In this document: piece by piece, positions 8,633-19,575 of the stretch
Layout: every line of letters begins with the position of its first letter
Position numbering within the stretch: position 1 is the first letter of the stretch
Assembly: GCA_964566795.1 (NCBI GenBank)
Contig: CAZMIU010000001.1
Coordinates: forward strand, 399,797-463,796
DNA length: 64,000 nucleotides
Source: an uncultured Candidatus Saccharibacteria bacterium
Lineage (GTDB): Bacteria; Patescibacteriota; Minisyncoccia; Phycocordibacterales; SBAW01
Direction: 5' to 3'
Translations under genes and position numbers: made by a program
Notes under the pieces: generated by a model
What the model saw: only the letters and a program-made list of their open reading frames with translations
Told to the model about the DNA's origin: nothing
Databases searched by the model: none

Positions 8633-9304
8633 ATGTCTCTACATTTGCTCCAAAAACTTGTGAGCTTCATACTCCCGCCCCGCATAAGCGAGCGCGTGGT
8701 TGAAGAGCTCACACTAGACGAGTTGGCGGACCTCCAGACGCGCGAGGGGCTCCCCTATGCAGACACAAGTGTAAAAAGTCTGGTGTGGGAGCTTAAGTAC
8801 TACGCCAACCCGCGCGCTGCCGCGCTCGCGGGAGAGCTTGTGGCCGAGGAGCTGCTCGCAATTGCCTCTGAGGAGCTGGGCCGCCCGCTTTTAATACCCG
8901 TGCCCATGCACCCGGCTCGTATAAAAGAGCGCGGGCATAACCACACTGAGCTTTTGTGCGAAGCTGCGTTAGTGGCTTTGGGAGATTTTCCTGTAAAAAA
9001 GTCCTCGGGTCTCCTGCCCCCGGCAGGCCAGACTATTTTTCCAGAAAAATCTCCCACCGCCTTCGACTACACGCCTGGTGTACTCACACGTATTCGGCAT
9101 ACTCCCGAGCAGCAAAAACTTTCCCGTGCCGAGCGTCTAGTGAATCTCAAAAACTCCATGCAAGCTAGCGACCACGTTGTGGGCCGTGTGTGCGTGGTCG
9201 TAGATGATGTCACAACCACCGGCGCGACTCTTTCAGAAGCAAAGAGGGCACTCCTGGAAGCCGGCGCCACAAAAGTACACACCCTCGCCCTCGCTCAGTC
9301 TTAG
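8633..9304 (+). CDS. comF: ComF family protein (phosphoribosyltransferase-domain competence protein)
   Basis: C-terminal PRTase motif VVDDVTTTGATL; divergent from the pilus operon. Confidence 0.7.
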   Translation: MSLHLLQKLVSFILPPRISERVVEELTLDELADLQTREGLPYADTSVKSLVWELKYYANPRAAALAGELVAEELLAIASEELGRPLLIPVPMHPARIKERGHNHTELLCEAALVALGDFPVKKSSGLLPPAGQTIFPEKSPTAFDYTPGVLTRIRHTPEQQKLSRAERLVNLKNSMQASDHVVGRVCVVVDDVTTTGATLSEAKRALLEAGATKVHTLALAQS

Positions 9305-10776
9305 GACTTCTCAACCTCCTCAATCTTTTGCTCTATATATTTTTGGGCGTCTTTGAGGTGTGTCTGGACCTTCTTAATATGAGCCGCGTCTGCCGGCGTA
9401 ATATCGGGGCGTTTGTCAGCGCGCTCCAGGTCTTTGAGCTGCTTTTGTATATCCTTTTTGACCGTCGTCAGCTTTTGCTTGGCCACTTTCTGAAACTTGT
9501 CAGCACCCCGGCTCGAAGATTTGCCCGCGCGGCGCTCCTGGCGGCGCAGCCTCATCCACAGCCAGACGTTCATGAGCAGCGAGAGTACCGAGATAGGCAG
9601 CGCCCACGGCATGAGCGAACTCCAGTTAAACGATGTGAATGCATCCACGACACCAGAGAGCGGGTTTGGCATGGCCTCTACCACAAACGTCGTGCCCTCA
9701 GATACGGTCGTGTTGCCCGCGGCATCTGCGACCCTGAGGGTTGCAGTGTGCTCCCCTGCACCGGTATTAAGTGCAACACTCGCGCCGCTCTCAAGCTTGG
9801 CAGCATCAACGTCGGCCATATAGGCGCCATCGAGCCACAGCTGTGCCGACTTGATGCCGGAGCGCTCATCATCTGCCAGAGCAGCGACATGCAGCGAGCC
9901 GTCGCTATACACGATAGTGGTATCCTCGAGCGTCGGGGCAACCGTATCTATCTGCACCTTGTACGAGTAGACCTCGCTCCACCCGCGCGCAGTGTGCGCC
10001 CGTATATTGAAGTACCATACGCCGTCATCAAGGGCATCAAGCTGCTTTTTGGCAATCGCGGGCTTGTAGGTCACTATCGGCGTGGTGCCCTTGTTTTTGC
10101 CTACAAGCGTCTGTACCGAGTCTGCGCCCTGAGGCAGGGTCCATTGTATAAGAGGTGCGTTTATCGGATACCATGCGTCTTGCGAGGGGTGCGTGGGCGA
10201 GCTTACCACCAATGCGCCCGACGCGGCAGGAGTTGAGGCTGCGGGTATTGTGGCGGGGGCCGGGGCTGTTGTTGCAGGCTCAGTAGTCTTGGTTGGTGCA
10301 CCGACAACGGTAATATAGGAGGCGCCCGTGCTTCTAAGCACGTCAGTGCCCAGACCGTCGTTGGCACGTACCGCAGCGCCCAAGAGCGAGATAGCGCCCG
10401 AACCCGCGGCTTTTGCCCTTAGTGTTACAGAAAACAGCCTGCCCTGCGTTCCGGTATAGCCGGGGGACGGCAACCCGCCGTTGAAGGACACGTCACTGCC
10501 CGTGGATGCGGGCGACTGTATCCACAACGTAAATATGGAAGGGCTCTGATTTACTGAAACTATCTCAAACAAGTCTGTCGGGATAGTAAGCGTACCCTCT
10601 GCGTTGTTTATAGCAACACCCTCGCTGTCGACCATAACCGCCACCAAAATTGTAGAGCCGACAGTAATCTCCGCGCTCGATGGAACCACAAAGAGTGTGG
10701 CTGCGTGCGCACTGGCGGGCATCAAACATACAGCGAGGAGGGCGGCGTACGCATACCAATATCGCACTAATGTCAT
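9301..10776 (-). CDS. Membrane-anchored cohesin-domain protein B (signal peptide, cohesin-like beta-sandwich, C-terminal TM and a Lys-rich coiled-coil cytoplasmic tail)
   Basis: The start MTLVRYWYAYAALLAVCLMPASAHA overlaps the upstream stop (ATGA). The domain after the signal (ATLFVVPSS..VGSTILVAVMVDSEG..NNAEGTLTIP..IVSVNQSPS..GGLPSPGYTG..) matches the cohesin pattern. A TM segment ISVLSLLMNVWLWM precedes a KQLKDLERADKR.. tail. Confidence 0.6.
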   Translation of the reverse strand: MTLVRYWYAYAALLAVCLMPASAHAATLFVVPSSAEITVGSTILVAVMVDSEGVAINNAEGTLTIPTDLFEIVSVNQSPSIFTLWIQSPASTGSDVSFNGGLPSPGYTGTQGRLFSVTLRAKAAGSGAISLLGAAVRANDGLGTDVLRSTGASYITVVGAPTKTTEPATTAPAPATIPAASTPAASGALVVSSPTHPSQDAWYPINAPLIQWTLPQGADSVQTLVGKNKGTTPIVTYKPAIAKKQLDALDDGVWYFNIRAHTARGWSEVYSYKVQIDTVAPTLEDTTIVYSDGSLHVAALADDERSGIKSAQLWLDGAYMADVDAAKLESGASVALNTGAGEHTATLRVADAAGNTTVSEGTTFVVEAMPNPLSGVVDAFTSFNWSSLMPWALPISVLSLLMNVWLWMRLRRQERRAGKSSSRGADKFQKVAKQKLTTVKKDIQKQLKDLERADKRPDITPADAAHIKKVQTHLKDAQKYIEQKIEEVEKS

Positions 10777-11639
10777 GAAAATGGGTGGTGGCGCTTTTTG
10801 CGGGCAAGCAGATACCAAACCCCGAGCACCAATACGAGCAGTATACCTCCCCACATGAACAATGACGTGCTCCCTGTGTGTATAGACGCTATTTTTTCTG
10901 TCACCGAGTTGCCGGCCGCATCTGTTACACGCACCCAGACACTGCTCCCCTGTGACTGATCTTCAAGGACATAATATCTGTCTGCTGGTTTGTACAAACC
11001 AAACCATCCCTCTTTAACTTCATACGAGGTTACGCCTGAGTTGTCGTCGGTCGCAAAGAATGTGACAAACTTCTGACCATCAAACAAAGCAGGGTCCTGC
11101 CCCACCTCCACAGACACAAATTGCGGTGCGGTACTGTCTTTGCTTTTTTGTGCAACGGGCTGGCTAGATGATGCTACAGCAACCTTTTTACTAAACCCAC
11201 TGACAGGCAGCACACTGCCCTTGCCGTCTGCCTTAAACGCGCGCGCCGCCTTAAGGGCAAGGGCGTAGGAGCCGCTTGCCGGTGCGCGGGCCTCGATAGA
11301 AAACAGCATCACATCCTCACCGGGGCCTATAGCAGATGGCACCCCGCCTGCAAACTCTATCTCGCGTGTGCCCGGGGCATAGCGCGGCACCACAGGCCAG
11401 AGGCTAAACGCCGAGCCACCTGTACTTACACTAAGGACTGCCGCACCCTCAAGCACAAATGTGCCCTCTGCCGCGTTTATCTGGTCCCCCTCTGTTGCAA
11501 GGCGGGCCTCTATAGTAAACGTCTCTCCTGCAACCGGCGCTGTGGGCGTCGTGCTTACGAGTATCTGCGCAGCATACGCGGGTACAGCGGCGCCAAGAAT
11601 CCCCAAGAAAAGCAGTGTTTGTATAGCGAGTGATTTCAT
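10773..11639 (-). CDS. Membrane-anchored cohesin-domain protein A (paralogue of protein B)
   Basis: Signal MKSLAIQTLLFLGILGAAVPAYA; a domain with the same pattern (ILVSTTPTAPVAGETFTIEARL..NAAEGTFVLE..VSTGGSAFSLWP..GGVPSAIGPG); a C-terminal TM segment LFMWGGILLVLVLGVWYLLARKKRHH. Confidence 0.6.
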   Translation of the reverse strand: MKSLAIQTLLFLGILGAAVPAYAAQILVSTTPTAPVAGETFTIEARLATEGDQINAAEGTFVLEGAAVLSVSTGGSAFSLWPVVPRYAPGTREIEFAGGVPSAIGPGEDVMLFSIEARAPASGSYALALKAARAFKADGKGSVLPVSGFSKKVAVASSSQPVAQKSKDSTAPQFVSVEVGQDPALFDGQKFVTFFATDDNSGVTSYEVKEGWFGLYKPADRYYVLEDQSQGSSVWVRVTDAAGNSVTEKIASIHTGSTSLFMWGGILLVLVLGVWYLLARKKRHHPFS

Positions 11640-18961: not shown

Positions 18962-18993
18962 ACTATGAATTCCCTATGAATACGTACATTTAA

Positions 18994-19575
18994 TCACACT
19001 TCCAGATAATCGATATTCACCTGCACGTTGCCGGTGCCGGAAATGACGCAGTACACGACCTCGTCCACGCCGCCCTCTACATAGTTGGGGTGGTTTTTTG
19101 TGCCGTACAGCCCTCCCAGTCGCGGAGAGACGTACTTTTCATAATCCGTGCCGCCCGACGTAAAACGGAACGAGACGCTAGTCAGGTTAGCGTCCAGCGA
19201 AAACCGTGTATTGTACACGCGCACCTTCTTGCCGCTCGCGGGCGTGTGCACGGTGCCCGAGGCGCTCAGGCTCGTTGTCTTTTTGAGGACGGCTGCACCC
19301 TCTTTTACCGACGGGTTAACGCGGGTGTTGGACGAATCTTTAACACCCACCACGCCCGTGCCGGGCGTGCTACCCATCACGAGTGCCGAAGCGCGCTTGG
19401 GGAGCGCGCTTGCAGCAACAGCGCCGACCGCTATGACCGCAAGGCTCTTGAGGAACAGGCGCTTATGCTGGTCGCCGGGCGCAGCATGAGCCGCGCCGGG
19501 TTTTAGCGCGCGCGGCAAGGGCTCCAGCACCTCGTACTCAGGCTCTGGAGGGCGTCTGTAGGGAAGAATACCCAC
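18994..19575 (-). CDS. Secreted beta-rich hypothetical protein with a Tat-like signal (..QHKRLFLKSLAVIAVGAVAASALPKRASA)
   Basis: GTG start at 19575 with the SD AAAGGGTGGG 8 nt upstream. The KRLFLK + h-region + AxA arrangement resembles the twin-arginine consensus SRRxFLK with KR in place of RR. Confidence 0.5.
   Translation of the reverse strand: MGILPYRRPPEPEYEVLEPLPRALKPGAAHAAPGDQHKRLFLKSLAVIAVGAVAASALPKRASALVMGSTPGTGVVGVKDSSNTRVNPSVKEGAAVLKKTTSLSASGTVHTPASGKKVRVYNTRFSLDANLTSVSFRFTSGGTDYEKYVSPRLGGLYGTKNHPNYVEGGVDEVVYCVISGTGNVQVNIDYLEV

Follow-up and report, generated by a model that had tools for sequence, protein, structure and literature searches.

Phage-type proteins and a candidate Tat cargo encoded beside a putative cohesin-held fibre in a gene cluster of Paceibacteria

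A nine-gene cluster on the minus strand

The DNA analysed here (the window) is a 64-kb stretch of contig CAZMIU010000001.1 from an uncultured Candidatus Saccharibacteria bacterium (assembly GCA_964566795.1), and our subject is a cluster of nine open reading frames (ORFs) within it, all on the minus strand between 9301 and 19575. They encode four proteins that we call P1 to P4, the TatC and TatA components of a twin-arginine translocation (Tat) system, a large dockerin-bearing protein that we call the fibre, and two membrane proteins, cohesin A and cohesin B. A reading of the same DNA made without database searches (the sequence-only reading) had described nine co-directional, operon-like genes, and this description holds: the ORFs are all intact, the gaps between them in gene order from P1 to cohesin B are 32, 2, 3, 4, 12, -26, 4 and -4 nucleotides (a range of -26 to +32, with the start of the fibre gene overlapping tatA by 26 nucleotides), and the order is conserved in relatives. 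A scan of the cluster for promoter and terminator consensus sequences found no convincing internal site and fewer promoter-like sites than in shuffled sequence, a result that is uninformative and at best weak evidence. The genes, with protein lengths in amino acids (aa), are:

18994-19575, minus strand: P1, maximal ORF of 193 aa; likely start at 19518, giving 174 aa
16550-18961, minus strand: P2, 803 aa
15906-16547, minus strand: P3, 213 aa
15717-15902, minus strand: P4, 61 aa
14963-15712, minus strand: tatC, Pfam TatC
14792-14950, minus strand: tatA, 52 aa, Pfam TatA_B_E
11644-14817, minus strand: fibre, 1057 aa, with a C-terminal Dockerin_1 domain
10773-11639, minus strand: cohesin A, 288 aa
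9301-10776, minus strand: cohesin B, 491 aa

Two conserved modules

Related loci in genome and metagenome contigs and in IMG/VR viral contigs are labelled here with L-numbers (L004, L008 and so on) where they have to be told apart. Homologues of cohesin A occur in Paceibacteria-type metagenome-assembled genomes labelled Kaiserbacteria, Nomurabacteria, Adlerbacteria and Paceibacterota, in agreement with the earlier suggestion that the window comes from a genome of the candidate phyla radiation (CPR). With a cohesin A just 45% identical to that of the window, one Paceibacterota genome has the full set of nine genes in unchanged order between different flanks. The cluster is far more than a chance association, as its order recurs in independent Paceibacteria contigs with other flanks, and a survey of gene neighbourhoods, one of the checks that the sequence-only reading had proposed, found tatAC next to dockerin or cohesin genes in many Paceibacteria. 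Between genera, the cellular copies of P1, P2 and TatAC are 67-87% identical.

Comparison of these loci divides the cluster into two conserved, usually adjacent modules: module A (P1-P2-P3-P4-tatC-tatA) and module B (fibre-cohesin A-cohesin B). TatC lies next to P1-P4 in all 15 loci that have a leader-bearing P1 and enough downstream sequence, in three arrangements, and tatA adjoins tatC in every module-A locus readable that far. The fibre gene is directly behind tatA in 10 loci; P1-P4-tatCA is divergent from fibre-cohesin A-cohesin B in L016 and L020; and L021 has tatCA ahead of P1-P4 (tatC-tatA-P1-P2-P3-P4), preceded by ATP synthase genes and by no fibre or cohesin gene. Because tatCA accompanies P1-P4 in all arrangements, the Tat genes belong with P1-P4. 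For module B, a fibre-type dockerin protein directly precedes cohesin A in every one of the 17 genome loci where the flank is visible, cohesin B usually comes behind, and L011 and L015 have fibre-cohesin sets with no tatAC detected in the visible flank. The cluster had been read at first as a single self-contained system built around the fibre, a view that the separate travels of tatAC with P1-P4 (L021, L016, L020) and of the fibre-cohesin sets (L011, L015) do not support.

In at least 12 independent loci the two modules lie side by side, both co-directional and divergent and with both types of P1/P2 cassette described below, which suggests that they work together, perhaps through a physical link between their products. 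It might instead be that they are functionally independent surface systems sharing an operon or a neighbourhood by chance. Consistent with independence, the visible sequence has module A without detected module B in L021, L023, L025 and L030, and module B without detected module A in L011 and L015, and the modules share no domain. Adjacency in so many independent loci, in both orientations and with both cassettes, is nevertheless hard to explain without selection for linkage, and we regard independence as doubtful while still giving it serious weight.

A conserved Tat-type signal on P1

The profile matches identify tatA and tatC of the window as genuine. TatC matches Pfam PF00902 with E = 4.1e-37 (128 bits against a cutoff of 25.1) and scores 125.2 bits with the NCBIfam equivalog TIGR00945, just below the cutoff of 132.7; it is 77% identical to its L005 counterpart. 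TatA matches Pfam PF02416 (TatA_B_E) with E = 2e-8 (33.8 bits against a cutoff of 21) and NCBIfam tatAE with E = 1e-11, under the cutoff of that model. No separate tatB is present in the cluster. Some module-A loci (L030, L064, L088, L089 and L097) have two tatA-family genes behind tatC, the second of which might encode a TatB-like component.

P1 begins with a Tat-type signal:

19384-19518, minus strand: Tat-type signal peptide of P1, with DQH-KRLFLK (19447-19464), a hydrophobic core, LPKR and ASA; predicted cleavage before LVMG
18997-19383, minus strand: mature P1, with a short linker (GVKxxxNxRVNP) ahead of a conserved C-terminal domain of ~100 aa

The P1 family is large (503 matches in one search and 337 representatives in a full-library profile search), and it includes the database protein P0150, which is 99% identical to P1, 174 aa long and encoded on a 590-kb NCBI contig. 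P1 matches no Pfam family at threshold, and its weak match to CIS_spike_tip (E = 0.005) is unconfirmed and recurs in no other search; a P1 profile found no match among PDB sequences. The motif [KR]RxF[LI][KRQ] is present in 112 of 120 P1 homologues (KR in 82, RR in 30), the other eight comprising six with near variants of it and two that are N-terminally truncated. Behind the motif the homologues have a hydrophobic core, a basic c-region P[KR][KR] and an AxA site, and the invariant positions of the alignment are a D, an R, a P and the A of the AxA site. P1 therefore carries the conserved set of features that marks a Tat signal (motif, core, basic c-region and AxA site), with the first arginine usually a lysine.

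Leader and C-terminal domain are separable. In the full-library profile search the C-terminal domain of P1 was found in 36 representatives of 115-621 aa, none of which has a Tat-like leader (0/36), and the leader with its GVKNxxNxRINPATE linker was found on 103 representatives with other C-termini, where it is Tat-like in 93 (KR in 84, RR in 9). The ratio of KR to RR in these P1-type signals, from ~3:1 to 9:1, is unusual relative to the canonical twin-arginine motif. Tat signals of the KR form are functional in known cases, such as the chloroplast Rieske protein and Salmonella TtrB, and are usually weaker. Many P1-type proteins (e.g. those of L008, L013 and L016) have a long variable stretch ahead of the Tat motif that starts with a semi-conserved YSFRLV and could be a chaperone-binding region; the N-terminus of the window P1 is instead short (EPEYEVLEP). 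Because the Tat signal on P1 is conserved and tatCA travels with P1-P4, P1 is the likely cargo of the TatAC encoded at the locus.

Phage relatives of P1 to P4

P1 to P4 had initially been set down as four unknowns. They are conserved members of the cluster and the likely Tat cargo, and the families are common to phages. P2 (threonine 15.4%, alanine 10.1%, glycine 9.6%) is an all-beta, multidomain protein with a six-bladed beta-propeller and belongs to a family common to phages. P3 is acidic (isoelectric point, pI, 4.45) and combines a conserved ~60-aa domain at its N-terminus with a tail rich in T, S, P and E, and its position behind P2 is conserved across loci; P4, also acidic (pI 4.05), is conserved behind P3. 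None of the three has a signal peptide. A P2 profile matched none of the PDB sequences, and a search of the PHROG families with the window copies of P1-P4, the fibre and the cohesins gave nothing at E <= 0.01.

The link to phages is seen only in uncultivated viral contigs; a tblastn search of GenBank phage records with P2 and mature P1 returned nothing. In a metagenome scan, P2 homologues fell into two classes. Members of the first are at least ~58% identical to P2 and lie in the order P1-P2-P3-P4-tatC-tatA, and those of the second are ~700 aa long, 41-55% identical, and encoded alone or in tandem arrays with no Tat genes. We assign the second class to phages. Full-length P2 homologues occur in 33 IMG/VR viral contigs, none of which (0/33) has a match to tatAC, a dockerin or a cohesin, and their neighbours include phage structural and packaging genes. 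In the clearest case, L073, the P2 homologue is followed by a gene for a tail sheath (PHROG 23, E = 1.6e-61) and preceded by one whose product has a tail-fibre N-terminus; L121 encodes, within a few kilobases of its P2 homologue, both a portal (E = 3.6e-57) and a large terminase (E = 6e-43). The P2 family is accordingly represented in contigs with phage hallmark genes, within structural-gene regions.

The resemblance extends beyond P2, which is colinear with its phage homologues from residue 1. A P4-like ORF lies behind P2 in 17 of the 33 viral loci, short P3-like ORFs (~60 aa) lie behind P2 in the phage-like L060 and L039, and a signal-less mature-P1 domain is encoded just upstream of P2 in L060 (132 aa) and in L115, where it is fused to a coiled-coil N-terminus. 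Phage copies of the P1-P4 families are without the Tat leader. The mature domain of P1 together with P2, P3 and P4 probably represents a phage virion module from the tail-fibre region. Tandem arrays of two to four P2 paralogues are found in L054-L059, L068, L082, L116 and L130; that of L082 is inside a Tat module, and L116 and L130 are IMG/VR viral contigs.

Families shared with phages could also mark a decaying prophage remnant that has no cellular function. The cluster and its nearest neighbours (genes for a methylpurine glycosylase, TspO, an extracytoplasmic-function (ECF) sigma factor, ComF and the pilus) contain no other phage genes, however, and every ORF is intact. Across many genera, and in varied genomic surroundings, the module is retained with 60-89% identity, and the Tat leader and tatAC are specific additions to the phage families. 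We rejected this explanation, which is hardly credible given the host genes on either side of the module and its conservation across many genera.

P1 might alternatively be the only protein exported by TatAC, with P2-P4 remaining cytoplasmic as, for example, an enzyme or maturation factors for P1 and never displayed. P2, P3 and P4 are without signal peptides, six-bladed propellers are often enzymes (lactonases and strictosidine-synthase-like proteins), and cytoplasmic chaperones are common in Tat operons. The homologues of P2 and P4, which in the loci examined lie in structural-gene regions of phage contigs, point instead to a structural, extracellular role. Moreover, Tat makes most sense for a cargo that is already folded or assembled, and mature P1, at ~130 aa and with no obvious cofactor motif, has little reason of its own to use it. 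We consider export of P1 alone unlikely.

A second cassette in the same slot

The slot occupied by P1 and P2 in the window holds a different pair in L008: P1b, which has the same leader and another C-terminal domain, and P2b, a 945-aa Kelch-like protein that is unrelated to P2 (E = 0.023). Behind P2b come a gene for a glucosaminidase-domain protein and then tatC-tatA-fibre-cohesin A-cohesin B. The glucosaminidase-domain protein (PF01832; L008 positions 3860-4729, plus strand), a cell-wall hydrolase, takes the position of P3, to which it shows no similarity; its presence hints that the exported complex may need passage through peptidoglycan. Homologues of P2b with up to 60% identity occur in 22 viral contigs, with a signal-less P1b core just upstream in 18 of them and no Tat genes. 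The P1b/P2b pattern matches that of P1/P2, and therefore a Tat leader was joined to the smaller protein of a two-gene phage module on at least two occasions. In L013 and L014 a P1b with the leader is encoded together with a P2b-type protein of 1693 aa, both divergent from fibre-cohesin A; the short contig flanks, readable for 6-7 kb, contain no tatAC.

Two alternative cassettes in one slot are what an arms race would predict, and it is conceivable that module A is an anti-phage device in which exported copies of phage receptor-binding proteins mask the receptor, in the manner of superinfection exclusion. The 41-60% identity between cellular and phage copies of P2 or P2b also indicates exchange with phages that probably infect these bacteria. 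Set against this, the 67-87% identity of P1, P2 and TatAC between genera looks like purifying selection on a core function and not like rapid turnover, and known defence genes were not seen nearby, the PADLOC library not having been scanned. A defensive role by masking of the receptor seems to us quite improbable, yet it is an alternative to be kept in mind.

A dockerin-bearing fibre and two cohesin proteins

The fibre consists, in order, of a signal, an N-terminal immunoglobulin-like (Ig-like) domain, a repeat stalk rich in S, A, T and V, one or more MG2-like Ig domains (a weak Pfam match), a poly-glycine linker and a dockerin:

14722-14817, minus strand: fibre signal peptide, MIIPPRRNRRFLLSVWVLLALPLFFASSASA, with RR present
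12583-14430, minus strand: repeat stalk, ~5 repeats of 124 aa that are composed of twelve sub-repeats of 19 aa (TASSSVAAVVNANTNS)
11647-11808, minus strand: type-I dockerin, two calcium-binding loops, DINGDAKVNGTD and DLNRDNKIDSVD, with FSILL behind each

Tandem Repeats Finder gave periods of 372 and 57 nucleotides in the stalk. Two long ORFs on the opposite strand over the fibre repeats (12725-13546 and 13637-14299, plus strand) look like by-products of the repetitive composition and not like genes, and the poly-glycine linker (11854-11898) is encoded by a short GCC/CCC-rich tandem repeat. The dockerin, the only one in the window, matches Dockerin_1 with 34.9 bits against a cutoff of 22.9 (fibre residues 1004-1051); both loops fit DxNxDxxVxxxD, in keeping with type I, and the domain is highly conserved across homologues. 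No enzymatic domain is detectable in the fibre, in line with its earlier description as non-enzymatic. Across loci the passenger carried by the dockerin protein ranges from 330-aa FN3 proteins (L011, L015, L018) to more than 3300 aa (L006, L019), and the last ~195 aa are conserved despite this change of passenger.

The fibre gene is followed by those of the two cohesins, for which the domain limits and membrane helix of cohesin B were read from the sequence:

10773-11639, minus strand: cohesin A, with a signal peptide, a cohesin domain (~11169-11570), an Ig-like domain (~10887-11126), a membrane helix (~10791-10868) and a basic tail
9301-10776, minus strand: cohesin B, with a signal peptide, a cohesin domain (~10297-10707), an Ig-like (Big_13-like) region, a membrane helix (~9550-9621) and a tail (9304-9549)

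The sequence-only reading had called both proteins membrane cohesins and had named the Pfam profiles by which its assignments could be checked. By these profiles TatC, TatA and the type-I dockerin all pass their thresholds, and neither cohesin matches Cohesin (PF00963) at E <= 0.1; single-sequence searches of Pfam, NCBIfam and PDB likewise found no cohesin in either window protein. An N-terminal signal and a C-terminal membrane helix are present in both. When 26 sequences (homologues of cohesin A and the two window proteins) were aligned, three of the 26 reached PF00963 (best E = 1.5e-7), and a profile of the alignment matched the Ruminococcus flavefaciens cohesins 5aoz and 5m2o with E = 1.4e-4. 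An AlphaFold model of cohesin A (predicted local distance difference test score, pLDDT, 90) shows, beyond the cohesin domain, an Ig-like domain and, at residues 258-283, a membrane helix near the C-terminus. Its best Foldseek matches among solved structures are cohesins: 2w1n (cohesin and FN3, E = 4.8e-9), 2vo8 (target-normalised TM-score 0.76), 2xdh and 6kgc. Profile search and modelled fold together confirm that cohesin A is a cohesin. Cohesin B, whose Big_13 match in Pfam is weak, is a predicted cohesin by its similarity to cohesin A, with which it shares 33% identity in the N-terminal domain (E = 8e-13). Cohesin B has a K/E-rich, probably helical, cytoplasmic tail of ~80 aa (9304-9549, minus strand) that cohesin A does not have and that could couple the surface fibre to the cell interior. 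The window holds a single dockerin, carried by a non-enzymatic fibre, and two proteins with one cohesin each, a composition different from that of a cellulosome.

Which protein the TatAC of the locus exports had been answered differently before: the fibre was taken to be its folded cargo, subsequently docked on the two cohesins, with P1-P4 as accessories. The fibre start MIIPPRRNRRFLLS fits a minimal RRxFL pattern, the fibre gene overlaps tatA by 26 nucleotides, and it stands directly behind tatA in the 10 loci mentioned above. Nevertheless, the RRNRRFLL of the window is specific to this genome; an RR or KRxFLK motif is absent in ~12 of 15 fibre homologues, which carry Sec-type signals, and the conserved Tat signal of the cluster is on P1. 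Twin arginines are not a conserved feature of the fibre signal. TatCA keeps its place beside P1-P4 both where the fibre module is turned round (L016, L020) and where none is seen in the vicinity (L021), the fibre-cohesin sets of L011 and L015 have no tatAC in the visible flank, and a repeat fibre of 1057 to 3300 aa would, by our own inference, be an unusual Tat cargo. Because the Tat motif is absent in ~12 of 15 homologues, the fibre signal of the window is most likely a Sec signal, and we judge Tat export of the fibre to be distinctly unlikely.

Genes flanking the cluster

Upstream of the cluster are genes for a methylpurine-DNA glycosylase and TspO, and ~2 kb upstream (21660-23334, minus strand) an ECF-type sigma-70 factor is followed by a DUF5667 protein that is possibly an anti-sigma or regulatory partner of the sigma factor. 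A sigma factor is also found near module A in L020 and L025. Downstream are a ComF-like phosphoribosyltransferase and then a type IV pilus set, PilM, PilN, PilO, PilB, PilT and PilC, which is interrupted between its PilT-like and PilC-like genes by an IS200-like (Y1_Tnp) transposase ORF (1882-2562, minus strand). The reported adjacency to a type IV pilus locus is thus real in the window, but it is not conserved: among the loci read, the pilus neighbourhood recurs in L004 only.

A model for the locus

We favour, with a confidence slightly better than even, a model in which Paceibacteria fused a Tat leader to a phage virion module and export it folded through a dedicated TatAC, beside a Sec-exported fibre held by cohesins. 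P2 would fold in the cytoplasm, perhaps aided by P3 and P4 as assembly factors of the tail-fibre type, and the folded P2 would bind P1. The P1-P2 complex would then cross the membrane through the dedicated TatAC, with P2 as a hitchhiker on the signal of P1, such that a phage-type, probably receptor-binding complex ends on the cell surface. Next to it the fibre, Sec-exported in most relatives, would be held non-covalently through its dockerin by one or both membrane cohesins. Docking of this fibre by cohesin and dockerin is most likely, given the invariant adjacency of the genes, and it is plausible that the locus serves to attach the cell to a host or partner.

Several observations weigh against this model. 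We infer the binding of P1 to P2, the export of P1 and P2 and the binding of dockerin to cohesin from sequence, and P2 might remain in the cytoplasm. The majority of P1 signals are KR and not RR, and the window fibre itself carries the minimal RRxFL motif and might, in this genome, be a Tat cargo. A virion role for P2 is suggested by gene position and by one weak PHROG 'tail fiber' match of the L073 homologue (E = 1e-6); a fold search of BFVD with P2 gave low-TM matches (<= 0.25) to propeller and tail proteins, which we did not use as evidence of homology. A direct P1 homologue upstream of P2 is rare among P2-type phage loci, with L060 and L115 the only two examples found. L073 and L121 encode at this position a different tail-fibre-like protein with no detectable similarity to P1, that of L073 having shown none in a profile comparison, and therefore the gene upstream of P2 differs among phages. 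Finally, L023, L025, L030 and L064 have module A with housekeeping genes downstream of tatA, the upstream side lying outside the visible sequence, and linkage of the two modules may therefore not be obligate.

A bolder version of the model, which we put forward tentatively and consider rather unlikely but with a real chance of being true, is that phage receptor-binding modules were domesticated in at least two interchangeable cassettes (P1/P2 and P1b/P2b) by joining a portable Tat leader, mostly of the KR form, to the small subunit. The complex would leave the cell folded, through the dedicated TatAC, and form with the cohesin-anchored dockerin fibre one surface organelle that recognises a partner cell and attaches to it. 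If true, this would be a new kind of phage-derived surface apparatus and the first defined job for Tat in CPR bacteria.

CPR bacteria, or Patescibacteria, are thought to live attached to other cells, and, type IV pili aside, little is to our knowledge known of the molecules by which they attach. The locus offers three testable subjects: a conserved candidate family of Tat cargo whose signal is of an unusual lysine-arginine type, the recruitment of phage virion proteins to an export route of the cell, and a widespread non-cellulosomal cohesin-dockerin anchor with swappable passengers. Some of the 'hypothetical proteins' of these genomes thereby become open to experiment. TatA and TatC were reported in Paceibacteria, without a named cargo, by a survey of CPR genomes from freshwater (PMC9166423). 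The sequence-only reading knew of no described system that pairs tatAC with cohesin and dockerin genes, and we too found in the literature no description of such a locus in Patescibacteria, whether of tat with cohesin or dockerin genes or of phage-like adhesins.

Comparison with known systems

Our data suggest likeness to several known systems, each of which differs from the locus in some respect. The phoD-tatAd-tatCd operon of Bacillus subtilis represents the substrate-dedicated minimal TatAC of Gram-positive bacteria. As there, the locus has TatA and TatC without TatB, in one operon with the protein that would be exported; its candidate cargo, by contrast, is no cofactor or phosphate enzyme but a small protein with signal-less, phage-type partners, and the signal is mostly KR. 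The Tat pathway moves proteins that are already folded, and a subunit with a signal can take partners without one across the membrane, a form of co-export established for E. coli HybOC, DmsAB and PaoABC (PMC4273604, PMC6708511, PMC10924467). Here too, one signal-bearing protein is encoded beside signal-less partners. The known hitchhikers must assemble with the signal-bearing subunit before export, as the putative complex of P1 and P2 would have to; they are cofactor-containing redox enzymes, whereas the locus encodes a beta-propeller protein and two tiny acidic proteins.

The best structural matches of cohesin A are non-cellulosomal cohesins, those of Clostridium perfringens glycoside hydrolases (2w1n, 2vo8, 2jh2) and of Archaeoglobus fulgidus (2xdh), with which the locus shares a single cohesin per protein and a context free of cellulose degradation. 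The pair encoded at the locus is conserved and differs in having a C-terminal membrane helix, one dockerin fibre beside it and a variable passenger. Like the anchoring scaffoldins of cellulosomes, the locus would use a cohesin protein to keep an extracellular, dockerin-tagged protein at the cell surface, but it has no enzymes, carbohydrate-binding module, multi-cohesin scaffoldin, or S-layer homology (SLH) or sortase anchor, and the Pfam Cohesin profile is silent.

Phage tail-fibre and receptor-binding modules have P2, P4 and sometimes P1 and P3 in the same order within structural-gene regions, and small acidic proteins encoded behind a large fibre-type gene resemble, in our own judgement, assembly factors. 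The cellular copies, unlike those of phages, have no capsid, tail or packaging neighbours, and they have gained a Tat leader on P1 together with tatCA.

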